Source: an uncultured Bacteroidales bacterium (GTDB lineage: Bacteria; Bacteroidota; Bacteroidia; Bacteroidales; S143-33). Taken from it: 64,000 nucleotides of DNA. The notes under the pieces are model-generated. The model had not been told where the DNA came from. It did no database searches and saw only the letters and a list, made by a program, of their open reading frames with translations. Positions 1 to 62,934 of the stretch are shown here, in pieces (the first letter of the stretch is position 1; every line of letters starts with the position of its first letter). The translations under genes were made by a program, and so were the position numbers. Where the stretch lies: contig CAZYSM010000007.1 of NCBI GenBank assembly GCA_964649975.1, forward strand, positions 1,042 to 65,041. The letters are read 5' to 3'.

Positions 1-2501
1 ACAATCTCGTCCAGATTGCGCTCCATAAATAGAATTTTGTAAACGTGTTTGTCCGGAAGGTAAGGCAAGAGATGAGACACGATTTTTACGGCTTTGCCAG
101 AGAGATTGTCAAGGAAATCAGACTGTTGTGCGATTTTTTTCACAGCTTCGTGTTCGTAATATCCGCGCGGATTGTTCTCATCTTTTTCCCGTTTATGGTC
201 AGTGAAAATTTCTATTCCTGCCTGCTCAAGGATTTGCATCATCAAGGAAGTGCCAGAACGTGGAATTCCACTGACCACTATGATTGGATCTTTATCCGAT
301 GCCTGTGCAATGGCTTTTGTTTCTGGCTTTACGCGTAAGTCATCCGGCTGGTCTAATATCTGTTCCTGAAAATCTGAAATAAATTCCTGCGGAGAGGTGA
401 AGTATTTTCTGTGATGTTCGGCTTTTTCTGGATTGTTAAGATGTTTTTCATACAGGTCAATGAGGATGTTCCTTGCCCGGGTGAAGTTGGGAGCAATTAA
501 CAGAGTGACTTCCAGAGCCAGAGCTGCACGTTCATATTCGCCAAGTTCTTTGAGCGTCAGTCCCAGGAGATACTGTGTGCGGTAATTGTAATAAAGCAAT
601 GTGGCGGACTGTAAAAGATAGTCCAGAGCCAGTTGGTAATGGTTTTGCAAAAAAGCTACATAGCCAAGCTGATAAAGGACATTGGCATTTTCCGGGTCAA
701 GGTCATAGGCTTGTTGCAGGAATTTTTCCGCACTGGCAAAATCTTTTTTCAAAATGTAAATCTCTGCAATCTTGCTAAGAAAATCCGGATTAGGGATGAT
801 TTTTTCCTTTATCCCCAGGAGTAGGTCCAGAGCTTTGTTGTATTCTTTCTGATCGCTGTATAACGAGGCTTTGAAAATATCGGACAGATATTTATCCTTT
901 CTTGCGCCCTGTAATGCACGGCGTTTGTCAGATAGACGTTCTTGCAGTCGGGACAGTTCCTTTTCGTCTTTATCCTTGCTTTGGTGCAATTGCTGGATTT
1001 TACCAGAAAGTTCGGAAATTTCTTTTGTCAGATTGTCGGTATATTCTGCTAATTTCTGGTCAAAGGTCTTTATAACATCCCATGCACGGTCAGGGTCGGA
1101 TAATCTTTCGTAGCAGGTAGCCAGACGGATAGCAAACCTGCCCAGATGCGGTTCCTGGTCAAAGAGGTCCTGCAATATCAAAGCTGCTTTGTCAAAGAGA
1201 TTGGCAAACATATAAGAGCGAGCCAGATTGTAATTAAGCTCTCTCTGGGTCTTTTGTGCTGCCCGGAAACCGTCGCTGTCAGGTTTTTCAATGTAGCCCA
1301 GGTCAATGAGCTGTTGGAGAATTTCTGCCCGGTCGTAATTACTCTCAGCTGCGGATTTATTGTGGCGTCCGTCCTGCCCGGGGATTTTGTCCCAGGACGG
1401 AACAGTTTTTATTTCCGTGGGCTGGCGGAAAGCATTGACAAGCGGAACTCCGTCCATATCCTGTCCCACAGGCAATCCGTAGGCGTAAAGTATTGTAGGC
1501 GTTATATCCAGCAAAGATGCCCCGTAGATGCGTTCGTCTTGCTTGAACAGAGGTCCGTGCAAAAGCAAAATTCCGTAGTTACGGTGCTGGTAAGCCGGTC
1601 CGGCCGGCTCGGACGGAACAGCACGGGGACGCAGATGGTCAGAATGAAATCCGTGGTCCGAGAGCAAAATCAGATTTACATCATCGCCGGCAAGGTCCAG
1701 CAAAGCCCCGAGCATATAATCCTGCAAAATGTATGTGCCTTCCACAACCTGATTGAAAAGTTCATAATCCTCCTCTGGAATGTGCGGAAGCCGTGGCGGA
1801 TAATATTGCATAAATCCGTGGGACATGTGGTCAATGATGTCATAATAAACAGCCATAAATTCCCAAGAGGTGTTTTCCATTAGCCAAGTGGCCACGTTAT
1901 GCACGGAAAAGGTTGTGGCAAGGTTTTCGGTTATTCCTTGCAGACGTTTGGGATTTTTTTCCAGAATTTCCCTTGCCTGTGGCACGAGTGGCAATAGCAT
2001 CTCGCCGGAAATTTCTGGCAGGAGCAACCGCAGATGATTGAAAAATTCTGCAAATTCCGGCGGATGCACTGTTCCCTGCGGTAGAGGTTGGAATTTGAAA
2101 TCCTTAATTGCCTTGAAAAAGTTTGAAACCATAAAGCCATTTATAGGCTCTGCTGGATGCGAGGGCCACCAGTTAACCACATTGCAGAAATAACCATTTT
2201 GCGTCAGGATATTCCACACGGCTTTTGTCTTGCGTGAGAGCGAGGAAATTGGCTGCACTCCGCTCATATCTGCCAGAGGTTCGGAAAATCCCAGTACTCC
2301 GTGCTTGAATGGATATTTTCCTGTGGCAATGGTTGTCCAAAGCATAGGCGAGAACGGAGGATCAAGGGTGGCAATGTTCCCTATGGTACCAGAGTCAATC
2401 ACACGGGCAATAGTAGGCATTTTGCCCTGTTCCACCAGACGGTTAATAACTTTCCAGTCTGCACCGTCCCATCCCACAACGAGTAATTTAGTCTTTTTCA
2501 T
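1..2501 (-). CDS. Alkaline-phosphatase-superfamily (type I phosphodiesterase/nucleotide pyrophosphatase-like) - TPR - sulfotransferase fusion protein; 3' end runs off the window
   Basis: Not in the supplied ORF track because it is open at the window edge. My reverse-complement read from the ATG at 2501-2499 gives MKKTKLLVVGWDGADWKVINRLVEQGKMPT... Metal-ligand-type motifs IIDHMSHGF (about 1815-1840) and LLSDHGFHS (about 1640-1665) are present. TPR-like helical repeats span about 350-1100. A PAPS-binding-type loop VVSGIPRSGTSLMMQIL lies at about 240-290; I checked that it is in frame with the start. No minus-strand ORF starting at 2501 is listed, which fits an ORF with no stop inside the window. 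Confidence 0.75.
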   Translation of the reverse strand, partial: MKKTKLLVVGWDGADWKVINRLVEQGKMPTIARVIDSGTIGNIATLDPPFSPMLWTTIATGKYPFKHGVLGFSEPLADMSGVQPISSLSRKTKAVWNILTQNGYFCNVVNWWPSHPAEPINGFMVSNFFKAIKDFKFQPLPQGTVHPPEFAEFFNHLRLLLPEISGEMLLPLVPQAREILEKNPKRLQGITENLATTFSVHNVATWLMENTSWEFMAVYYDIIDHMSHGFMQYYPPRLPHIPEEDYELFNQVVEGTYILQDYMLGALLDLAGDDVNLILLSDHGFHSDHLRPRAVPSEPAGPAYQHRNYGILLLHGPLFKQDERIYGASLLDITPTILYAYGLPVGQDMDGVPLVNAFRQPTEIKTVPSWDKIPGQDGRHNKSAAESNYDRAEILQQLIDLGYIEKPDSDGFRAAQKTQRELNYNLARSYMFANLFDKAALILQDLFDQEPHLGRFAIRLATCYERLSDPDRAWDVIKTFDQKLAEYTDNLTKEISELSGKIQQLHQSKDKDEKELSRLQERLSDKRRALQGARKDKYLSDIFKASLYSDQKEYNKALDLLLGIKEKIIPNPDFLSKIAEIYILKKDFASAEKFLQQAYDLDPENANVLYQLGYVAFLQNHYQLALDYLLQSATLLYYNYRTQYLLGLTLKELGEYERAALALEVTLLIAPNFTRARNILIDLYEKHLNNPEKAEHHRKYFTSPQEFISDFQEQILDQPDDLRVKPETKAIAQASDKDPIIVVSGIPRSGTSLMMQILEQAGIEIFTDHKREKDENNPRGYYEHEAVKKIAQQSDFLDNLSGKAVKIVSHLLPYLPDKHVYKILFMERNLDEI

Positions 2502-2751
2502 TGTCCTGATCCTTTTGGTGTGGAAACGGCGGGATAATCAAATGCTCATTATCAAAGCGCCATCCACGGGCTTTGCGGAGTGCAATGGTGGCTTTATAGC
2601 CCAGAGCCATGAGAGAAAGGCTGCCCGCAGGCGTTATAGGGATTTCTTTACCGTCCGGGGTAATGAACCTGTAATCTTTTTCATACAGGTCTTTTAGCAA
2701 TTGTATGGTTAAGGTGTCAGTCATAGTTATATAAGAAATTTTTATAAGCAC
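2488..2751 (-). CDS. small hypothetical protein (87 aa; alternative start at 2724 giving MTDTLTIQ...)
   Basis: ORF track. Its last 14 nt overlap the ATG of the downstream fusion gene (2501), suggesting translational coupling. Its base composition resembles the downstream gene rather than the AT-rich upstream TIR gene. I recognise no family. Confidence 0.5.
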   Translation of the reverse strand: MLIKISYITMTDTLTIQLLKDLYEKDYRFITPDGKEIPITPAGSLSLMALGYKATIALRKARGWRFDNEHLIIPPFPHQKDQDNEKD

Positions 2752-2787: not shown

Positions 2788-4323
2788 TTAGTATTGCTTT
2801 ATTAATTCTTCTATTTTATTGAGTTTGTAAATTTTTTCGTCTATTAATGTTATTTGTTTTTGTGTTGGATAGGATAAATTTTGTTTCAGGAACAGAAGTA
2901 TCCTTTTTGCTTTTTCGTATTGATGTTGTCTGACTAATTGATTGGTATAGTTGATGTAATAGGCTACATACCGATTGTTTAACCTGTGAATGAAATCGTA
3001 TAAGATGATTTTTTTTGCTTGCGGAATATTTTTTAAAGAGATGAGAAAAGTAATTTTATTAAAAAGGGTTTTATGCGTTTGAGGATTGAATTTTCCGGAT
3101 TTTAAATAAATATCCACTTCTGTTTTTAAGTTGTTAACGGCCAGTATATAGGTAGAGTCCAGTTTATACTTCAATATTTTGTTTTGTTCCGGGCTGAGGC
3201 CAGTGTTTTCAAGATTAGTAAGTATTTCAAGGCTTTTGGTGTAGTTTTGATTATTGGAATAATAGTCAGCCAGGGCTAATGTTTTACGGAAATATTCATT
3301 GTTTAGCCCGGTGCTAACCTGTGTTGATGACCTGCTTTTTTCCTTAATGTGGGAGGTGCTGTAAAAACGGTAACCTGCTATTGATAAAATCACAATTAGA
3401 ACTAAGAAAATTATTGCTAAAAAGATAAGGAAATATTTTTTCGTAATATTTGCAGCTTGAGTTTTGTCCTGAGATAATGGGTTTTCAGATGATTTTGATT
3501 TTTTCTCTAATCTGTATAATAATTTTTTGGCTTTTTGATATTTTTCTTCAATTTCCTCTGAATGTCTGTGATTTAAAGCTTCTTTGAAGTATTTAACAGC
3601 TGTTTTGTAGTTTTTTTGTTCCAGGGCTTTTTCGGCTGTTTCTATATTTTTGTGGTATAAGATTTCTTCATTGCATATATGTATTTGTTCCCTTACGTAG
3701 TCTAAATCAGGTTCAAATCCGTCTTGATATAATTTTATAGCCTCTCTGTAAGTTTTTATAGCTTCGTGATATTTTTTTAGAGAAAAAAGAAATGCTGCTT
3801 TTTTTATAAGGTCTAAATATTGTTCCTGGATAGACATATTTTTATCTTCTTGTGAATCAGTGAAAATGGCTTCTTCTTTGTTTAGAGTAATATTGTGGCC
3901 GTTTGGTATAAAAATCTCCTCTATTTCTTTGATTATTTGATATAATGCGAGTTCTGTATTGCCCCAGTATTTATCTGTAACAGGAATTTTATTTTCAGGT
4001 TTTACATCCAGCTTTGCTATAATGGTATTTTCCCAATAGCAGGGTTCTAATAAAATGGCTATTGCCTTAATCTGACGGCCATTTATAAGGTTTTTCAGAA
4101 AATCTTTTTCTAAAAATCCGGAAGTTATGAAATCAACGCTTATTAATAGAAATAAAACATCCGGCCTGTTTTCAAATTCTTTTAAATTTATTTCGTTTTC
4201 AACTATAATCTGGTAGTATGAAAAAGATAAATTATTATTAAGTTCAAAAGCTTTTAAATGTTTTAAAAATCTGTGATATAAATATTTATTTTCTTGAGAA
4301 TAAGCTATAAAAATTCTTCTCAT
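2788..4323 (-). CDS. TIR-domain single-pass membrane protein (N-terminal TIR, TPR-like helical repeats, one TM helix, helical C-terminal domain)
   Basis: The N-terminus has the TIR_2-like pattern: RIFIAYSQEN..., DVLFLLISVDFITSGFLEKDFL (a conserved Glu candidate) and IKAIAILLEPCYWENT. Repeats such as YHEAIKTYREAIKLY and YKTAVKYFKEALNH follow. A hydrophobic segment FLIFLAIIFLVLIVILSIAGY is encoded at about 3372-3437. The C-terminal 190 aa are helical and TPR-like. Confidence 0.7.
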   Translation of the reverse strand: MRRIFIAYSQENKYLYHRFLKHLKAFELNNNLSFSYYQIIVENEINLKEFENRPDVLFLLISVDFITSGFLEKDFLKNLINGRQIKAIAILLEPCYWENTIIAKLDVKPENKIPVTDKYWGNTELALYQIIKEIEEIFIPNGHNITLNKEEAIFTDSQEDKNMSIQEQYLDLIKKAAFLFSLKKYHEAIKTYREAIKLYQDGFEPDLDYVREQIHICNEEILYHKNIETAEKALEQKNYKTAVKYFKEALNHRHSEEIEEKYQKAKKLLYRLEKKSKSSENPLSQDKTQAANITKKYFLIFLAIIFLVLIVILSIAGYRFYSTSHIKEKSRSSTQVSTGLNNEYFRKTLALADYYSNNQNYTKSLEILTNLENTGLSPEQNKILKYKLDSTYILAVNNLKTEVDIYLKSGKFNPQTHKTLFNKITFLISLKNIPQAKKIILYDFIHRLNNRYVAYYINYTNQLVRQHQYEKAKRILLFLKQNLSYPTQKQITLIDEKIYKLNKIEELIKQY

Positions 4324-4434
4324 AAACTTCTATGTCTCTGTGAATTAATGAAATAATCAGAATAAAATTGCATTTTGGAATAGATAAAGGTAAAATTTAA
4401 TTCTATTTTAATGAAAAATTTTTTATGGAATTAT

Positions 4435-4442
4435 TATTTTTG
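4435..4442 (+). promoter_or_regulatory. candidate Bacteroidota -7 promoter element (TAnnTTTG) upstream of the ParM-like gene
   Basis: tatttttg lies 39 nt upstream of the ATG at 4481. I saw no clear -33 TTTG at the expected spacing. Confidence 0.3.
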
Positions 4443-4480
4443 TCTATTAGGATTGGTATCAAAAACAAAATTTTACGAAT

Positions 4481-5506
4481 ATGGAAAATTTTAAAACAAT
4501 TATTTTTCCCAGCGTGTTTGAGCGTCATAATTCTGAATTGGATAAAGTGGCAGATAACTTATTGGATGGTCTGAAAATATTTCTCAATGGTGAGGCTTAT
4601 ATTATAGGCAATTTAGCTTTTTCCGAAGGATTAAATCCACACCGGACAATAAACAGCTCACCTGATGACCTTGATTACAATTTGTTTTTGTATGCAGCTC
4701 TGTTGTTGATAGATAATCAGGAAAACCGGCCTGTTTACCTGACTACCGGTTTCCCTTTTTCTACTTATAGGATTAATAAAGAACTTGCCGAGAAAATTAT
4801 AAAAGGTAAGCATATTATTGATTATGACGCCTCTACTTTTAGTGATAAGATGAAACTAAGTAAGGAGGTTAATGTTGCCAAGGTTGATATTCTGCCAGAG
4901 TTGCAGGGTAGTATTCTTGGTTTGAGAAAAGGCAAGAAAAAGGTTTCAGGAAATTTCTTTATAGTGAGCATTGGCTATGGTACTTTTGAAGCGGCTTTGA
5001 GCACTCCCAGCGGTATTGTGCAAAGAACAGCTGTTAGCACAAAAGGTATAGTCTATGCTATTGATATGCTTATTAAGGAGCTGGAAAAAAGTTATTATCT
5101 GGGATTGAAAACCAAACAGCAAATAGATAATTTCTTTCAGAGGGATTACATTATTTTGAACAGAAAGAGGATTGACATCCGGAAAATGAAGAGTGAGGTA
5201 CTTAATTCTTACTATGAAAATGTTATCTCTCCTGAGTTGAGAACAGCTTTTACGGATATTGATTTTGCCAAGGCCAATAAAATGTATATAACGGGTGGAG
5301 GAGCATTATACCCGGATTTGATAGATAATTTTTATACTGAGTTTGGTGAGATTGTTGATATTGAAGTAGTAGAAAATCCTTTGACTTTGGCCAGTGAAGG
5401 ATTTTTCTTGAACTCGCTGGAGAAAAAAGATGTTCTGGAAATACCTGTGGGGCTGGATATTGGTAATTCTAATACAGTATTGACAGTGTCAGATGTAAAA
5501 ATATAA
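4481..5506 (+). CDS. ParM/StbA-like actin-fold (ASKHA) ATPase, atypical: phosphate-1 motif located at the C-terminus
   Basis: Motifs occur in ParM-like order: KTIIFPSVF, NGEAYIIGNLA, TTGFPFSTY, ILPELQGS, FFIVSIGYGTFEA (phosphate-2-like), MYITGGGALY (adenosine motif). The C-terminal PVGLDIGNSNTVLTV (5447-5488) is phosphate-1-like. An in-frame TAG at 4448-4450 excludes an N-terminal extension. Confidence 0.75.
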   Translation: MENFKTIIFPSVFERHNSELDKVADNLLDGLKIFLNGEAYIIGNLAFSEGLNPHRTINSSPDDLDYNLFLYAALLLIDNQENRPVYLTTGFPFSTYRINKELAEKIIKGKHIIDYDASTFSDKMKLSKEVNVAKVDILPELQGSILGLRKGKKKVSGNFFIVSIGYGTFEAALSTPSGIVQRTAVSTKGIVYAIDMLIKELEKSYYLGLKTKQQIDNFFQRDYIILNRKRIDIRKMKSEVLNSYYENVISPELRTAFTDIDFAKANKMYITGGGALYPDLIDNFYTEFGEIVDIEVVENPLTLASEGFFLNSLEKKDVLEIPVGLDIGNSNTVLTVSDVKI

Positions 5507-5513
5507 TAAAAGA

Positions 5514-5552
5514 CAAAAAAGGCGGGGCAGCCTTGATGCCCCGCCTTTTTTA
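5514..5552. terminator. bidirectional rho-independent terminator between the ParM-like gene (+) and sufS (-)
   Basis: Perfect 9-bp stem ggcggggca (5521-5529) / tgccccgcc (5537-5545), flanked by an A-run upstream and a T-run downstream. Confidence 0.8.
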
Positions 5553-5553
5553 T

Positions 5554-41798: not shown

Positions 41799-41827
41799 AA
41801 AAAGCCGCCTCATTGGCGGCTTTTTTT
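41797..41827. terminator. bidirectional rho-independent terminator shared by ribH (+) and dnaA (-)
   Basis: Stem gccgcc (41804-41809) / ggcggc (41815-41820), flanked by an A-run and a T-run. The dnaA stop codon abuts the T-run. Confidence 0.8.
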
Positions 41828-43262
41828 AGTATTGCAGTGTTCTGGAAATATCTTCTACGTACTGCTTGACGTTTTTGTCAGTAGCCATAAGGTCTTCCAC
41901 GGTTTTGAACGCGTGTAACACGGTGGAGTGGTCTCTTCGTCCCAGCTCAGCACCTATACGGGAAAGAGAAGCTTCAGTGTATTTCCTGGCCAGATACATG
42001 GCTATTTGTCTTGCCAGTACTATTTCTCTGGTTCTGGCTTTGGATAAAATGACTTTTTGGTCCAGTTTAAAATACTCACTGACAGTACGCAGGATATAAT
42101 CAATAGTAATTTCTTTTCTGCGTTCTTTTACAAGATTTTTAACAACATTTTTTGCCATATCCAGGGTTATACGTGTGTTTTTGTACATAATGGAATAAGC
42201 AATCAGGGAATTTAGAGCCCCTTCCAGTTCGCGTATGTTGGTGGCAACATTTTCCGCAAGATAGCGCAATATACGGTCGGGGATATTATATCCGCCCTGG
42301 TATGTTTTGTATTTGAGGATTTTCAGGCGTGTTTCAAAGTCAGGATGTTTTAGTTCTGCTGTTAATCCCCATTTTAATCTCGTGACCAAACGCTCTTCCA
42401 TACCGTCAAGATCAACAGGAGGGCGGTCACTGGTTAATACAATTTGTTTATTTTCAAGATGTAAGGTGTTGAAAATGTTAAAGAATTTTTGCTGGGTTTT
42501 TTGTTTACCTGCTAATTCCTGGATATCATCAACAATGAGTACGTCTATTAACGAATAAAAACGGATAAATTTGTTGATTTCGTTATTTCTGATGGCAGTA
42601 GTGAATTGTTCTTCAAATTTAGCAGCAGATATATATAATACGGTGTGTTTGGGGAAATTTTCTTTTATTTTTATACCAATAGCCTGAGCCAGGTGTGTTT
42701 TTCCGGTACCTGTAGGACCATATATCATAAGAGGATTGAAATGGCTTTTTCCTGGATTTTTAGCTATTTCTATACCTGCATTTCTGGCTAATCTATTGCA
42801 GTCGCCTTCAATGAAATTGTCAAAAGTATAGTCAGGTTTGAGGTTGGAATCTATCCGTCTTTTACCTATACCAGGAATGATCTGTGGATTAGAGATTTCT
42901 TCTGTAGCTACGGGGGTATTGACAGGCTCATTTTTTAGCTGAGGAGCAACGTTCCCGGGTAGTACATACAGGCGACTTCCTTTGCCATTATTCTTTTGGC
43001 CATTGTTTTTTATAGCTACAATCTCATATTCCAGCTTGGCATTCGGTCCAATAGTTTGCTTTAATGCTTTACTCAATAATCCTAAATAGTGTTCTTCCAG
43101 ATACTCGTAATAATACGCACTGGGAACACGTAGAGTAATTTTGTTTTTGTTAAGTTTAACAGGTTCAATTGGTTCAAACCAATTGCGGTACGATTCAGGC
43201 GATACGTTGTCCTTTATAATGTCCAGGCATTGACGCCAGACACTATTTACATCCCTTTGCAT
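41826..43262 (-). CDS. dnaA: chromosomal replication initiator protein DnaA
   Basis: Motifs NPLMIYGPTGTGKTHLAQAIG, LIVDDIQ, and the C-terminal DNA-binding domain ARQIAMYLARKYT..SL..IG..LGRRDHSTVLHA. Confidence 0.95.
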   Translation of the reverse strand: MQRDVNSVWRQCLDIIKDNVSPESYRNWFEPIEPVKLNKNKITLRVPSAYYYEYLEEHYLGLLSKALKQTIGPNAKLEYEIVAIKNNGQKNNGKGSRLYVLPGNVAPQLKNEPVNTPVATEEISNPQIIPGIGKRRIDSNLKPDYTFDNFIEGDCNRLARNAGIEIAKNPGKSHFNPLMIYGPTGTGKTHLAQAIGIKIKENFPKHTVLYISAAKFEEQFTTAIRNNEINKFIRFYSLIDVLIVDDIQELAGKQKTQQKFFNIFNTLHLENKQIVLTSDRPPVDLDGMEERLVTRLKWGLTAELKHPDFETRLKILKYKTYQGGYNIPDRILRYLAENVATNIRELEGALNSLIAYSIMYKNTRITLDMAKNVVKNLVKERRKEITIDYILRTVSEYFKLDQKVILSKARTREIVLARQIAMYLARKYTEASLSRIGAELGRRDHSTVLHAFKTVEDLMATDKNVKQYVEDISRTLQY

Positions 43263-43645
43263 AGCTTCCCCCCTATGTTTAATTTTTTTGTAATTTCTTT
43301 ATATAAAACTTGTTAGGTGTTTTGAGTGGGTAAATTTCTCAACATAAAATTGAGATATTTTTTTTAATCTGTAAAATTTCAAGCTCTGACAATTTTTCAG
43401 TTTTGGTTTTACGATTTTATATTCAAAACATTAGACAATGTTAAAAAGATTAAAAATATATATTTGTTTGATTGTTAATAAACTCTGTATTATTATGTAA
43501 ATCAATAAGCTGTGTTTGTCCTCTCTTTTTCTAACAAATGTAAAACAAAGTTTACTTATTTCATAATTTTTAACAAAAAAAATTAAACCTTTCATCAAAA
43601 TAATAAAATTATATTTGCACATTAAGAATAAAAAAATAAAGAATT

Positions 43646-57870: not shown

Positions 57871-59142
57871 TTAGAGTTTTTTCCACAGTAATTGTGCTTG
57901 CTGTTGTGCCATGGCAAAGACTTCTTCCTCGTCAATAGTTGTAACCTTCCTGTCTTTAAGGACTATTTTTCCATTGCTGATAACGTGTCGTACGTGTGCC
58001 GAGGATAGAGCATAAAAGAAATGTCCGAGGAAATTTGTGGATGTAATGGGCGTACGTGGCTGATAGTCAAATATAACAATATTATTCTCTGCATGTCCGC
58101 TGAAATTATTTTCAGCGAGGTAACGGTCATTATTTCGCAGACGCTGGTAGATCATGTCCATATCCTGCTGTTCAAATGCCAGGCCAGCGAAATAAGCAAA
58201 TTTGGCACTTTGTATCATATCCGAGTGCATACCGTCGGTGCCCAGCATAATACGGTTGGTGTCAAGTCCTTTTGCGGAAAAAAATCCTACCTGGTTATTG
58301 AGATTGCTTTCAGGATTTTGCACTATCCAAGCACGGGAGTTACGCAGGATTTCCCGCTCCTCATCATTAATATGTATAGCGTGAGCCAGTATGGTTTTTG
58401 AGGAATTCAGGAACCCAAAGTCATTCAGCCGGTGTATAACACGTTTGTTATGGTGTATTGTACACAAATCCTCATCCACTTTGTCCTCAGCCACGTGGAT
58501 ATGTATGCCTGAACCGTAAGTTTCCATCATATCCGCTGCTTGTTTTAATGTTCTGTCTTCCAGTGTAAAGGAAGCGTGTAATCCTATGAGCCCTTGCCGT
58601 TCTTCCAGGTAAGCTTTTGTTTCTTCCAGACCTTCAATGGATTTCTCGTATCCGTCGCGGTCGGATATTTCGTAACATAACAAATGAGATAGACCGACTT
58701 TTTCCAGGGCATTGGCAATAATTTCCAGTGAACCTGTAATAAAATTAGGTGAAGCGTGATGGTCTATGATAAATGTAGCACCTGCTTTCAATGCGTAAAT
58801 GGCTGTGGATAAGGCACTTGCTTCTATGGCTTGTTCAGTGAGTTTTTTATCCAGGTTCCACCAGACGTATTTGAGTATTTCGTAGAAGTTAGAAGGATTT
58901 TTTTTAGGAGCTGGCATACCTGTAGCCAGTGCAGAATAAATATGATGATGTCCTATTACAAAAGACTTTGTTGTTAATCCGCCCTGTGCATCAATTATTT
59001 GTGTGGCATTTTCGGGGATTTTGTCAATGAATTCAATTTTTCCTTCCTTACCCTGATAGACTTTGATATTGCCCTTGTATAGAGAAAAGTCGTATGGATT
59101 GATATATAAAGCATCTTTGATGTAGAGTTCGTTATTTTTCAT
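57871..59142 (-). CDS. amidohydrolase-superfamily protein, SsnA/chlorohydrolase-like
   Basis: I chose the start MKNNELYIKDALYINP; it is embedded in the stop region of the upstream gene (ATGAAAAATAA), and the ORF-track start is 59184. Metal motifs VIGHHHIYSAL, IIDHHASP, IHIHVAE, GTDGMHSD. Confidence 0.8.
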   Translation of the reverse strand: MKNNELYIKDALYINPYDFSLYKGNIKVYQGKEGKIEFIDKIPENATQIIDAQGGLTTKSFVIGHHHIYSALATGMPAPKKNPSNFYEILKYVWWNLDKKLTEQAIEASALSTAIYALKAGATFIIDHHASPNFITGSLEIIANALEKVGLSHLLCYEISDRDGYEKSIEGLEETKAYLEERQGLIGLHASFTLEDRTLKQAADMMETYGSGIHIHVAEDKVDEDLCTIHHNKRVIHRLNDFGFLNSSKTILAHAIHINDEEREILRNSRAWIVQNPESNLNNQVGFFSAKGLDTNRIMLGTDGMHSDMIQSAKFAYFAGLAFEQQDMDMIYQRLRNNDRYLAENNFSGHAENNIVIFDYQPRTPITSTNFLGHFFYALSSAHVRHVISNGKIVLKDRKVTTIDEEEVFAMAQQQAQLLWKKL

Positions 59143-61153
59143 ATTTGTCAATGAGTTTTTGTATTTGGTCTTCAAGATTTTCAATTTTCTTTTGGTATGC
59201 TTTTTCTGCTTTTTTGAAGCGTTCCATTGCCTCTTTTAATTCTTTTTCTTTTTCATTAATTTTTTGTTCCAGTTCCAGGATTTGAGCAACTTTTTCCGAG
59301 ATAATATTTTGTTTGATAGAATTGTCTATTTTTAGCTGTTTTATTTCTTCCTTCAGTTCATTAATTTTTTCATTATAATCTTCCAGTTTCAATTTGTATT
59401 CAATTTCTTTTTGCTCAAAATTTTCTGTTTTCTGAGTAAGTTCTTTTACGAGTTGCTTGGTACGTTCGTTGATAAGTACATAATTAATAGTTGTGCCAAG
59501 GTCTGCAGTGAATTTCTCAATAAAATTAATATGGTAATCTTCAAATTTTTCATTGGATGCTATTTCCAGGATGCCATAAATCTCATCTTCAAATTGTATA
59601 GGGAACCAGGCTATTGTATTAGGACGCCCGTAACCAAAGGCTGTTTCATAGAAAATATAATTTTCCGGCACAGGGGAAACAATAATTGGTTTGGCATCAG
59701 CGGCTACGGTTCCGATAAACCCTTCTGTCAGACGGTATTCCAGATTTGAAATTTTTTTCTTATCGTAGGCAAAGGCAATGTTTAGCTTATAAACAACTTC
59801 GTCTGCTTTATTTTCTTTGTAGTATATTGCTCCCATAGGAGCATTTAATGTTTTTAGCAGTTCTCTCAGGGAATTTTCCAGCAGGGAGTTTAGGTCAGTA
59901 GAATGTTCGCGCAGTATATCACTCAAATGGGCAAGCCCCTGGGTTACCCATTTTTGTTTTTCTTCGCTTTCGCGAGTTTTTTGTATGTCTTCGTGATATT
60001 TCTTTAGATAATTTTTTAGGTCAATGATGGAATAAGTAAGCACATCTTCGCTGGATAGTGGCGAAATATCAATATCGTAATTACCTTTTGCCAGTTCCTG
60101 TAATTTTCTGTTTTTAAATCTAAGATTTGAACTAATACGGTTTATTGTAATTGTTATATCTGATAGCTCCCTGGAAATTCGTATTAATTCAAATTTTTCC
60201 AGTGACCCCAATTCAATCCGTTTAAGTGCTTGCAGTATTTTAGAAAGATTTTGGTAGATGATTTTATAAATGTTGTATCCGTAAAATACTAATAATAAAG
60301 TGAATAGACTGATAACAATAAGGATTAAAGTTTCCCTATTTCTGGATTTTTGTGAAATAATATTTTCTTCAGTTTCCAATAGTTGACTTATTGGAGCTTG
60401 TAGGTTGGCAGGATTGACATCTTTAAATAGCCCGGACGAAAAAGGTTTACCGTAAATGTCGAGTAGATAGTAATAGTCTGAAATAGAGAATTTTATGCTA
60501 TTGACTATTGCCAACAAATTGTTTTTAATAATTTGTTGACGGGTAGAATTTACATTTAGTTGTTCAAGCTGTTTAGTGAGTTTTTTTAATTTTCTTTCAA
60601 TATTTACGCTATTGGAAGGTGTAAGTTTACCAGTTAGGCTTACTATTTGACTAACATATTTATCAAATGGAGGATTTAAGAATTCAGGATTATTTTTCAG
60701 CTGGAAAATAAGATTTCTGATAATAGCCAGGCGGCTATCCGTGTTATTATATAATTGATTATTAATTTGCTTTACCTGAATAATTTTATTTTTATATTGT
60801 TCAAAATTGTTTTGTAATTGTTTGAAATAGAAATTTTTACGAATAAAATTGAATTTTGATAATTCCTGTATATATTCGCTGATTTTATTTAATGACTTGT
60901 AAATTTTTTTATATTCATTTTCCTGGATATACTTGTATGGACTATTAAAAATTGTTTTTACTTGATTGTCAATAATAGTTATTTCCTGATTAATTTCATT
61001 AGTTAGTTTATAAGTTTCTATAACTTTTTTATTGAATTCATAAAAAGAAACGAATAATCCAATAACGTATATAAAAACTATAGATATTAAACTAACCCCA
61101 CCAAGCAGGAAATAACCTATAGGTATTTTGGATAAATTAATTTTTCTGCTCAC
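59132..61153 (-). CDS. membrane sensor-like protein: TM - helical extracytoplasmic domain - TM - HAMP - GAF - long coiled coil, no recognisable output domain
   Basis: TM1 is IGYFLLGGVSLISIVFIYVIGLF and TM2 is LILIVISLFTLLLVFYGY. The HAMP-like segment is LKRIELGSLEKF...RELSDITITINRISSNL. The GAF-like segment is LNAPMGAIYY...GFIGTVAADAKPIIV...WFPIQFEDEIYGILEIAS. The C-terminal tail is KE-rich heptads. Confidence 0.7.
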   Translation of the reverse strand: MSRKINLSKIPIGYFLLGGVSLISIVFIYVIGLFVSFYEFNKKVIETYKLTNEINQEITIIDNQVKTIFNSPYKYIQENEYKKIYKSLNKISEYIQELSKFNFIRKNFYFKQLQNNFEQYKNKIIQVKQINNQLYNNTDSRLAIIRNLIFQLKNNPEFLNPPFDKYVSQIVSLTGKLTPSNSVNIERKLKKLTKQLEQLNVNSTRQQIIKNNLLAIVNSIKFSISDYYYLLDIYGKPFSSGLFKDVNPANLQAPISQLLETEENIISQKSRNRETLILIVISLFTLLLVFYGYNIYKIIYQNLSKILQALKRIELGSLEKFELIRISRELSDITITINRISSNLRFKNRKLQELAKGNYDIDISPLSSEDVLTYSIIDLKNYLKKYHEDIQKTRESEEKQKWVTQGLAHLSDILREHSTDLNSLLENSLRELLKTLNAPMGAIYYKENKADEVVYKLNIAFAYDKKKISNLEYRLTEGFIGTVAADAKPIIVSPVPENYIFYETAFGYGRPNTIAWFPIQFEDEIYGILEIASNEKFEDYHINFIEKFTADLGTTINYVLINERTKQLVKELTQKTENFEQKEIEYKLKLEDYNEKINELKEEIKQLKIDNSIKQNIISEKVAQILELEQKINEKEKELKEAMERFKKAEKAYQKKIENLEDQIQKLIDKYEK

Positions 61154-61279
61154 CTTGATAAGATGTTTTTATTTCCAAATTTATTAAAAATAATACTTGA
61201 ATTGAAAATTTAAACAAAAAAATATTACGGATAGGATGGTATGAAGTTTGTAAATTTTATCTAACTAAAAGTTAAGTAT

Positions 61280-61987
61280 ATGCCGTATAGACGTTTGCCA
61301 AATACTGATGCTGCCCGCATTAGATCTATGGAAGCTGCATTATCACAGGCCGAGAAGGATGAGATGGATTTTAAAACAGTCATTCCTTTTGATTTGCAGT
61401 ATAAGTTGAAAAATTTATATCCGGAATTTACTCAAGCAGTGGATTTGTATAATCAAGCATATAAAAGGCAGGTAGAGGCCGGGAAAAAATTGAAAAAGGA
61501 TTTTAAAATGGCACGGTTATATTTGTCTCATTTTCTGCAAGTTTTTAATATGGCTATTATACGTAATGAAATAAATCCCCGGGAAAGGGAGTTTTTTGAA
61601 CTGCCTCCTCAGGATTTATCCTTACCGCGCCTGCAAACAGAAAAGGATTTATTACATTGGGGCGAAATAGTTATTTCGGGTGAAGAAAAACGTCTCTCAA
61701 GAGGCCATACTCCTATTACTAATCCTAAAATAACTCTTGTTAAGCTTTACTATCAACGTTTTAAGGAAAATTATCTATTTTACAAAAAATTACAGGAGAT
61801 TACCGCTGCTAATCTTGAAAACGTCAGCCGCCTCAGACCCAAAGTAAATAAGTTAATACAGAAAATATGGAATTCTGTGGAAGAGTATTTTGCTGATTTA
61901 CCCCCTCGTCAAAAGCGGGAAAATGCTGCACGTTATGGCGTTGTATATTTTTATAGAAAAGAAGAAAGAGAATCTCAAGAAAATTGA
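61280..61987 (+). CDS. hypothetical protein
   Basis: ORF track. The N-terminus MPYRRLPNTDAARIRSMEAAL looks like a hypothetical-protein family I recall from Bacteroidota, from memory only. Confidence 0.6.
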   Translation: MPYRRLPNTDAARIRSMEAALSQAEKDEMDFKTVIPFDLQYKLKNLYPEFTQAVDLYNQAYKRQVEAGKKLKKDFKMARLYLSHFLQVFNMAIIRNEINPREREFFELPPQDLSLPRLQTEKDLLHWGEIVISGEEKRLSRGHTPITNPKITLVKLYYQRFKENYLFYKKLQEITAANLENVSRLRPKVNKLIQKIWNSVEEYFADLPPRQKRENAARYGVVYFYRKEERESQEN

Positions 61988-62020
61988 TTAAATTTAGGAA
62001 TTAAGTTTTTAAATTTGCTT

Positions 62021-62890
62021 ATGCGTAAAGAGGCTGATATAAAAGAACATACCGCTAAAGTCAACAAGAAATTTACTCTCCGTCTATTATTATATTACCT
62101 GTTTTTATTCCTGTTTTTCATAGGTTTATTATTTGTTGTGCGATTTGCTTTCCATGGCCTTAATATTTTACTCTTGAGCTTGTTCATAATTTTGGTGGTA
62201 ATTATAGGTGTGGAGATAATTAAAGTGTTTAAAGTGAAAAAAGTATTGGATGTAGTTAAAGATTTGATTGATAGGGGATTATTTCATTATGCTTATTACT
62301 TGATTTCTTATCTGGAAGAGGCATATTCCTATGAGAGTATTTCTGATATTAAAGATAAACTCAGCGAGTTAATTGATACTGCAGACCTGTATTTTCAGAC
62401 AAAAAACTATGATCAGTTATATGATGCCGAGCTGGATAAAATTATAGACTTGATAAATTTTAATATAGATATCTATGAAGGTTTTTATGTACAAAACCGT
62501 ATTGCTTTTGAGAATTCAAAACAACAGATAGATGAATTTTTGCAAAATGACCCTAAGCTGAAGGAATATCTTGGTAAGGAAAAAGAAATTTTATCTCTGG
62601 AAGAGGAACGTTTGGCTGCTTTTTCTCAGATAAAGAATTATTTTGAGAAAATGAAAAAAGAACAAATACGCCTGATGCTTACTCTTCCTGATATTGATAT
62701 TATGTCAAAAGACTATGGTCGTTTTGTTAATAATCTACTGGATAAGGCATATTATACCGCTGAAGCTCAAGAAATGCTTGCCAGGATTGATAAAGCCAAA
62801 GATATTTTTTATGAAATTTTTCCTGCTATATTAAAAGCAGAGACCAGGGAAGAAATAAAAGAAAAATTAAAACGCTTGGAAAGTATTTGA
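62021..62890 (+). CDS. hypothetical membrane-anchored coiled-coil protein
   Basis: I chose the ATG at 62021 over the TTG at 62015. Two N-terminal TM helices are followed by a helical, KE-rich domain. Confidence 0.55.
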   Translation: MRKEADIKEHTAKVNKKFTLRLLLYYLFLFLFFIGLLFVVRFAFHGLNILLLSLFIILVVIIGVEIIKVFKVKKVLDVVKDLIDRGLFHYAYYLISYLEEAYSYESISDIKDKLSELIDTADLYFQTKNYDQLYDAELDKIIDLINFNIDIYEGFYVQNRIAFENSKQQIDEFLQNDPKLKEYLGKEKEILSLEEERLAAFSQIKNYFEKMKKEQIRLMLTLPDIDIMSKDYGRFVNNLLDKAYYTAEAQEMLARIDKAKDIFYEIFPAILKAETREEIKEKLKRLESI

Positions 62891-62934
62891 AAAGTGGTAT
62901 TTTTGCAGGCAAATTTTAAAAACATTGCCAGAAA

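Follow-up and report, generated by a model that had tools for sequence, protein, structure and literature searches.

The closest described counterparts of the genes analyzed here are the ParM/Alp actin-like proteins (Pfam ALP_N, PF17989), among them Ta0583, pCBH ParM, Dh-cParM1, CorM, and Alp12, and the TIR proteins of bacterial defense, such as ThsB, BcTir/Tpr, AbTIR, and Cat1. Canonical actins, Hsp70s, and ParM proteins all have the phosphate-1 hairpin at the N-terminus. Two structural systems also bear comparison: MreB-RodZ, which joins an actin-like filament to a single-pass membrane protein with cytoplasmic binding and periplasmic domains, and BacA-LmdC, in which bactofilin and an M23 peptidase form an established morphogenetic module (PMC10945521). 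Bactofilins of Bacteroidota usually carry a membrane-targeting sequence (PMC12448750). Here, we analyzed a 64,000-nucleotide stretch of DNA (hereafter, the window) from an uncultured Bacteroidales bacterium (assembly GCA_964649975.1, contig CAZYSM010000007.1, positions 1,042 to 65,041), in which a gene for an actin-like protein (ALP; 4481..5506, plus strand; 341 amino acids, aa) is transcribed divergently from a gene for a TIR-fold membrane protein (hereafter, the partner; 2788..4323, minus strand; 511 aa).

With ParM/Alp proteins, the ALP shares the actin/ASKHA fold, a match to ALP_N, the PE of connect-1, and the adenosine motif GGGA. However, its phosphate-1 hairpin is C-terminal, invariantly so across its family, and the order of its motifs is not canonical. 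Moreover, the family is chromosomal, restricted to Bacteroidota, Rhodothermales, and Balneolales, devoid of ParR/parC, and 14–18% identical to solved ALPs, and its partners are a bactofilin or a transmembrane (TM) TPR protein instead of plasmid or phage partition genes. The partner resembles TIR defense proteins in its TIR_2-type N-terminal fold, its TIR–TPR fusion, and the second TIR gene that follows some of its distant homologs, but it lacks the catalytic Glu, its TIR is dispensable in a sister lineage, and it has a membrane anchor and an additional helical domain. As for BacA-LmdC, relatives of the ALP lie in bactofilin operons, some beside a TM-anchored M23 peptidase and a second bactofilin; however, the text of PMC10945521 names no actin-like component, and in the window no bactofilin or M23 gene adjoins the ALP gene. 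The likeness to MreB-RodZ is by analogy only, with no relation in sequence or fold: RodZ uses a helix-turn-helix domain, whereas the partner has a TIR fold and TPRs, and its interaction with the ALP is a proposal. What is new here is a family of actin-like proteins in which a circular permutation is fixed and bactofilin is the usual partner, and to which the clade of the window has added a TIR-derived membrane partner.

The permuted actin-like protein

The ALP is a true circular permutation of the actin fold, with its phosphate-1 hairpin relocated from the N-terminus to the C-terminus. Pfam ALP_N matched residues 4–140 far above its gathering cut-off (54.4 vs. 26.3 bits; E = 2e-14), covering profile positions 16–145 only. 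The last 20 residues of the protein, IPVGLDIGNSNTVLTVSDVK, resemble a phosphate-1 hairpin; they belong to a C-terminal beta-hairpin (5432..5503, plus strand; aa 318–341) that contains the phosphate-1 motif GLDIGNSNT (nt 5450–5476; aa 324–332 of 341). When the last 24 residues were placed first, the ALP_N match grew to profile positions 1–145 and its score rose from 54.4 to 62.5 bits. In a comparison of the family profile with PDB sequences, profile positions 320–337 aligned to residues 3–20 of DnaK, and positions 132–213 aligned to DnaK 162–250, the phosphate-2 region.

The AlphaFold2 (AF2) model of the ALP, built from a 70-sequence alignment, had a predicted local distance difference test score (pLDDT) of 94.3 and a predicted TM-score of 0.92. 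It ended in two strands (321–327 and 331–337), and the model suggests that this hairpin packs at the position of beta1-beta2. Foldseek matched the model to Ta0583, pCBH ParM, CorM, Dh-cParM1, pSK41 ParM, Alp12, and MreB at 14–18% identity, with TM-scores of 0.63–0.76 to solved ParM/Alp proteins; the best were Ta0583 and pCBH ParM (0.71–0.76, probability 1.00).

The C-terminal motif AVGLDIGNxxT was invariant across 70 homologs (G324, D326, G328, and N329 all without exception), which also shared an FPSV strand as their N-terminal start. The ALP in the window carries both parts of the resulting family signature, namely the C-terminal hairpin (A/P)(V/I)G(L/I)D(I/V)GN(A/S)xT and the N-terminal FPSV strand. 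Because the permutation is fixed at about 50% identity over a phylum-level group, it is functional and not an artefact of assembly.

The remaining motifs of the ALP are connect-1 LPE (aa 138), a phosphate-2-like SxGYGT (aa 163–168), and the adenosine motif GGGA (aa 272). The phosphate-2 motif has the form S-x-G-Y-G-T-x-E family-wide (S163, G165, G167, and E170 invariant), the usual form being D-x-G-x-G-T, and judging from these residues the family may use a catalytic chemistry other than that of canonical ParM and actin.

Length variation was seen among the relatives as well. Long forms of 428–567 aa occurred among proteins P0063–P0119 (e.g., P0072, P0075, P0094, and P0119; loci L046, L047, and L067), most with an acidic, K/E-rich, apparently disordered C-terminal tail of 90–225 residues ending in a conserved (D/E)DYEPDFS, a layout resembling the linker and C-terminal peptide of FtsZ. 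Two short forms, P0054 and P0077, ended in FEPTFS. Loci with long forms had no adjacent bactofilin. We considered a second, partial ALP copy in the long forms, as in a duplication intermediate, and rejected it: the family hidden Markov model gave no second match, and the extension is the disordered acidic tail. The Pan_kinase match in L046 is probably just the hairpin.

Distribution and genomic context of the family

Members of the ALP family are chromosomal and have been inherited vertically. A homolog search with the ALP recovered 226 proteins at about 46–67% identity, many on megabase contigs. The species scan took one genome per species, relatives being present in at least 274 genomes, and the neighbor counts below cover the 80 loci that were fetched. 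All 80 belonged to Bacteroidota (Bacteroidales, Cytophagales, Sphingobacteriales, Odoribacteraceae, and Dysgonomonas), Rhodothermales, or Balneolales, and a neighbor-joining tree of the ALPs grouped them by taxonomy. No relative was found in 2.9 million viral contigs. The ALP matched nothing in PADLOC or PHROGs, and NCBIfam held no dedicated model; NCBI and JGI label its relatives as "ParM/StbA family".

When neighboring genes were clustered, bactofilin was the one partner that crossed lineages, being adjacent to the ALP gene in 48 of the 80 loci; the other recurrent neighbors reflected lineage-specific synteny. It lay immediately downstream on the same strand in 47 loci (median gap, 12 nt), 18 of the pairs having stop and start codons that overlapped, and these neighbors matched Pfam Bactofilin at E-values of 1e-15 to 1e-21. 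No ParR-like gene was found near the ALP in any locus examined. The operon context with bactofilin and M23 peptidase (see below) points to a cytoskeletal or envelope role, and we consider it highly probable that this is a bactofilin-associated, cytoskeletal-type family of permuted ALPs rather than a defense gene.

Several lineages showed additional arrangements. In Sphingobacteriaceae-type genomes (Sphingobacterium, Pedobacter, and Daejeonella), a gene for a TM-anchored M23 peptidase (282 aa; PF01551, 5e-37) was divergent from the ALP–bactofilin operon in 10 loci (L057, L060, L063, L064, L069, L070, L072, L076, L077, and L080), with a second bactofilin (~125 aa) beside the peptidase in 8 of them. 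Two Dysgonomonas loci (L078 and L081) had the order bactofilin–ALP–bactofilin. In rumen Bacteroidales (L007, L013, L015, L019, and L020; also L006 and L008), an ADP-ribosylglycohydrolase gene (PF03747, 6e-17) lay directly upstream of the ALP gene on the same strand, and a protein of 799–1105 aa with TM, TPR, and WD40 regions was encoded divergently from this pair. The latter was tried as a homolog of the partner in the window and rejected (hhalign probability 1.8%). With the TIR fold of the window, ADP-ribosylglycohydrolase makes a second ADP-ribose-related neighbor of the ALP family.

The membrane partner

The N-terminal domain of the partner is a TIR fold. Pfam called only TPRs in the protein and no TIR, PADLOC gave a marginal ThsB match (E = 2e-4, 18 bits), and a word-indexed homolog search returned the partner itself only. 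An exhaustive HMMER search, however, found 1236 relatives, most of them aligned over aa 3–136, with TIR_2 matches of 1e-9 to 1e-17; homologs at 1e-25 to 1e-34 scored TIR_2 at 1e-14 to 1e-17. Furthermore, a profile made from these TIR relatives matched the solved TIRs Cat1, AtTIR, and AbTIR.

The partner is predicted to be bitopic. From its N-terminus, it comprises the TIR-fold domain (aa 1–141; 3901..4323, minus strand), located by the homolog search, the TIR profile, and AF2/Foldseek; a TPR-like helical domain on the cytoplasmic side (aa 165–278; 3490..3831, minus strand); a single TM segment (aa 297–318; 3370..3435, minus strand), YFLIFLAIIFLVLIVILSIAGY; and an all-helical repeat domain at the C-terminus (aa 338–510; 2794..3312, minus strand), which would lie on the periplasmic side. 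In the AF2 model (pLDDT 88), an alpha/beta TIR-like region (aa 1–141) was followed by a disordered linker, TPR-like helices, the TM helix, and a confident helical region (aa 338–510). Foldseek matched the TIR domain to the BtpA TIR, and the rest of the model gave only generic TPR or 14-3-3 matches.

Family members typically carry the motif LLLISxDFxASDYCYxxE, the Glu of which was present in 127 of 157 relatives (81%) and aligned to the catalytic Glu of AbTIR (NYELDG), Cat1, and AtTIR. In the window, this column is F75, with D74 at −1 and E72 at −3, and N12 replaces a near-invariant D12. In L088, the locus of one of the closest paired relatives, the column is L within FFNTQLL, and no acidic residue occurs within 3 positions. 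The (W/Y)xxxE(L/M) pattern around the catalytic Glu of TIR NADases (nicotinamide adenine dinucleotide, NAD) was found in neither protein. On this sequence evidence, the TIR of the window is unlikely to be an NADase.

Conservation of the pair and fate of the TIR

The three closest ALPs (64–67% identity), in loci L088, L003/L004/L093, and L085, each had a divergently transcribed homolog of the partner, of 571 aa (TIR_2, 2.6e-9), 396 aa, and 403 aa, respectively. The spacer between the two genes was 154 bp in L088, 186 bp in L003/L004/L093, and 480 bp in L085, compared with 157 bp in the window. Both flanks differed in every paired genome compared, and the divergent adjacency persisted while identity among the partners fell to 33–38%. 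The intergenic regions shared no clear motif beyond AT-richness. The four paired ALPs were monophyletic in the neighbor-joining tree, and the partner was missing from all other 79 species loci. No bactofilin gene adjoins the ALP gene in this clade. The linkage thus arose once and has persisted even as the genomes diverged substantially and were rearranged; it is neither ancient nor obligatory, and the pair in the window is a narrow lineage-specific elaboration of the ALP family. A metagenome scan with a partner profile (4-sequence alignment) returned only the organism of the window (L094) and one TIR-less fragment (L095).

Within the partner, the TPR domain was the best-conserved part over the four paired loci (39–48% identity). 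Between the window and L088, identity was 44% in the TIR, 48% in the TPR domain, and 34% in the C-terminal domain, and the value for the TIR indicates that it is constrained as a fold where it is kept. In L003 and L085, by contrast, the TIR is cut down to its first beta-strand, VFI(S/A)YSA, fused directly to the TPR domain through an in-frame loss of ~150 residues. Because these two are sister taxa, the deletion counts as one event. Despite the loss, both retained the remainder of the partner and the divergent pairing. This fits a TIR that serves the pair as a non-catalytic interaction or oligomerization domain, which the module can spare, and does not fit a NAD-consuming effector.

Partner homologs with the whole architecture of TIR, TPR, TM, and helical C-terminal domain (P0125, P0127, and P0129) were not paired with an ALP. 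Contig ends lay 137 and 494 bp from P0125 and P0129, which makes their upstream context uninformative or weakly negative. P0129 (L090:495-2827) and P0127 (L092:5001-7564) were each followed by a TIR_2 gene of 250–257 aa that keeps the catalytic Glu, a candidate two-TIR module recalling the anti-phage BcTir/Tpr operon. No second TIR gene was found in the 64-kb window.

The locus and its surroundings

The two genes are separated by a divergent spacer (4324..4480, both strands; 157 bp, 19.7% GC). The sequence-only reading of this DNA gave the open reading frames (ORFs) and this very AT-rich spacer exactly. It also noted a TAnnTTTG −7 element for the ALP gene; the motif is present at 4435–4442 (plus strand), 38 nt ahead of the ATG, but the window as a whole contained 98 such sites, where 83.6 ± 7.7 were expected by chance, so this single site is by itself no promoter evidence. 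Downstream of the ALP gene, which has no operon partner on that side, lies a bidirectional hairpin resembling an intrinsic terminator (5513..5553, both strands; 17-bp stem), and beyond it the convergent sufS (Aminotran_5, 8e-149). The other flank begins with a 78-aa ORF, followed by a large Phosphodiest–TPR–sulfotransferase gene at 46% GC. The same reading had described the flanks correctly, namely sufS behind a terminator and, on the other side, a gene of different composition (46% vs. 29% GC), and had asked whether the pair sits in a defense island. It does not: the locus is chromosomal housekeeping territory, with sufS, ribD, recF, dnaX, and dnaA in the window. The dnaA gene (41826–43262, minus strand) lies 37 kb from the pair, beside an AT-rich stretch of ~31% GC around 43000–43600 (region 41826–43640), and together they probably mark the chromosomal origin region, which indicates that the window is chromosomal.

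The partner gene (29% GC in a window averaging 38.8%) was the lowest-GC gene in every genome compared, and its product is rich in K, I, and N; the GC of the ALP gene is within about 1 standard deviation of the window mean. Low GC is here an ambiguous sign of horizontal transfer. An Rfam scan of the whole window detected no RNA element. The DNA of the window comes from a hydrothermal-vent metagenome. The locus was present in four metagenome runs, one labeled hydrothermal vent, and a run search found no RNA-seq run carrying it.

Elsewhere in the window, the 78-aa ORF (2488–2724, minus strand) overlaps the start (2501) of the 929-aa fusion protein of the same flank (region 1–2724, minus strand), in which a type I phosphodiesterase/alkaline-phosphatase domain is joined to TPR repeats and a sulfotransferase domain, an unusual architecture. 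A STALD assignment of the 78-aa ORF was not significant (E = 0.02). The second-lowest-GC patch (59132–62900; 27–32% GC at about 60000–62000) covers the gene for a 673-aa protein with a GAF domain and two ORFs, of 235 and 291 aa, without a Pfam match.

Discussion

In our proposed explanation, the ALP would form a nucleotide-dependent filament at the membrane or cell envelope, as its genomic context suggests, and would not be a plasmid-partition or defense ATPase. In most lineages, bactofilin would tether or pattern these filaments; in the small AT-rich clade of the window, the bitopic TPR protein would replace the adjacent bactofilin as the tether, probably contacting the filament through its conserved cytoplasmic TPR domain and placing its C-terminal helical domain on the periplasmic side. 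The partner descends from a TIR-TPR-TM family whose other members adjoin a second TIR gene, an arrangement that looks defense-like. In the branch linked to the ALP, the TIR has lost its catalytic Glu and is either kept as a non-catalytic but constrained domain (window and L088) or deleted (L003 and L085). Taken in full, with the ALP as a cytoskeletal filament and the partner as its membrane adaptor, specific to this lineage and derived from a TIR-TPR family, this explanation has in our view about an even chance of being right, its interaction part being based on adjacency.

Several observations weigh against it. The evidence for an adaptor is adjacency in four genomes of one clade, and hence of a single evolutionary origin, and the nearest outgroup ALP loci (L005, L086, and L087; 57–63% identity) have no partner. 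One metagenome-assembled genome, GCA_054920135.1, encodes both P0127 and an ALP (P0007) on different contigs, with 5 kb flanking P0127 free of ALP genes. The bactofilin context is borrowed from other lineages; no bactofilin was detectable in the 64-kb window. A mobile cassette would likewise agree with the differing flanks and low GC. Finally, charges around the TM segment show no bias to either side, so that the topology of the partner is a prediction, and the ATPase activity of the ALP is putative, its phosphate-2 motif being SxGYGT and not DxGxGT.

Several of these points suit an alternative in which the two genes have no functional link and stand together through the recent shared ancestry of four genomes, while the ALP works with unlinked partners (e.g., a bactofilin encoded elsewhere) and the TIR-TPR-TM protein has a role of its own. 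The single origin of the pairing, its absence from the closest outgroups, and the unlinked occurrence of both families in GCA_054920135.1 agree with this, and divergent genes need no co-regulation, in keeping with spacers that share little beyond AT-richness. However, adjacency has outlasted a drop in identity to 64–67% for the ALP and to 33–38% for the partner, both flanks have changed in every genome compared, and the spacer has stayed short (154–186 bp) in three of the four; we therefore regard the absence of a link as possible but rather doubtful. A segregation machine of the ParM type, in which the ALP would move or position a plasmid, an organelle, or part of the chromosome, with the membrane TPR protein standing in for ParR/parC as the adaptor, is suggested by the nearest solved structures (ParMs and Ta0583), by the "ParM/StbA family" labels, and by dnaA at 37 kb. 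Yet neither a ParR-like DNA-binding gene nor centromere repeats were found, a terminator directly follows the ALP gene, and the family is chromosomal, single-copy per locus, absent from viral contigs, and linked to bactofilin and M23 peptidase, not to partition genes, all of which makes such a machine very improbable.

The pair might instead be a two-gene anti-phage or NAD-signaling system, with a membrane TIR sensor or effector activated or scaffolded by ALP filaments, much as the sequence-only reading had conjectured. That reading was sound in its domain calls, a TIR-fold membrane protein and a permuted actin-like ATPase, which homologs, profiles, and AF2 all confirm; in seeing no named defense system, since PADLOC called none; and in proposing the divergent pair as a candidate module, which recurs outside this genome with different flanks in L088, L003/L004/L093, and L085. 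Bacterial TIR domains are mostly defense-associated. The TIR shows constraint where it persists (44% identity), the pair is AT-rich and its context differs from genome to genome, as is often the case for mobile defense cassettes, and a similar layout is seen at the distant homologs P0127 and P0129, each with a small TIR gene behind it that keeps the Glu. Moreover, TIR + TPR combinations include BcTir/Tpr, which is anti-phage by experiment (bioRxiv 10.1101/2023.05.26.542521). Against this, the Glu column holds F (window) or L (L088), the pair was retained in L003 and L085 after the TIR had been deleted, and the ALP family extends far beyond the pairing, which speaks against a TIR oligomerized on an ATPase scaffold. 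Nor does a defense or signaling module agree with bactofilin as the usual partner (48 of 80 loci), with the vertical inheritance of the family and its want of PADLOC, PHROG, or viral-contig matches, or with the second TIR gene that adjoins full-length TIR-TPR-TM homologs elsewhere and is absent from the 64 kb of housekeeping neighbors here. Neither Thoeris, given the marginal ThsB match and the absence of a ThsA gene (SIR2/SLOG or Macro) from the window, nor a BcTir/Tpr-like operon, which would include a second TIR gene such as those beside P0127 and P0129, was identified in the window, and we judge the defense explanation very improbable.

The preferred explanation, an envelope filament with a lineage-specific adaptor, can be extended. 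Tentatively, and at a likelihood well short of even, the permuted ALPs could be an unrecognized, phylum-wide third cytoskeletal actin of Bacteroidota beside MreB and FtsA, co-assembling with or guided by bactofilin at the membrane, and in the vent clade they would have been rewired to a membrane adaptor that arose by exaptation of a TIR-TPR protein of immune type. More boldly, NAD or ADP-ribose chemistry might regulate the filaments, because two independent clades have put such genes beside the ALP: a TIR fold in the window and ADP-ribosylglycohydrolase in rumen Bacteroidales.

Our literature search covered permuted actin/ASKHA proteins and bactofilin with ParM or actin-like proteins in Bacteroidota, and found nothing relevant; in the literature searched, we thus saw no account of the actin/ASKHA fold being circularly permuted in nature, or of a link between such proteins and bactofilin. 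The finding also carries a caution for defense mining: where the TIR lacks its catalytic Glu and sister lineages can dispense with the domain, its position beside an unusual ATPase does not make the locus an immune system. Instead, this may be a case of co-option, in which a protein of immune type took on a structural role. For the family as a whole, the ALP–bactofilin operon joins two classes of bacterial cytoskeletal polymers hitherto studied apart, and the hypothesis that the two act as one system in envelope morphogenesis can be tested in culturable carriers, including Mucilaginibacter, Pedobacter, Sphingobacterium, Dysgonomonas mossii, and Roseivirga.

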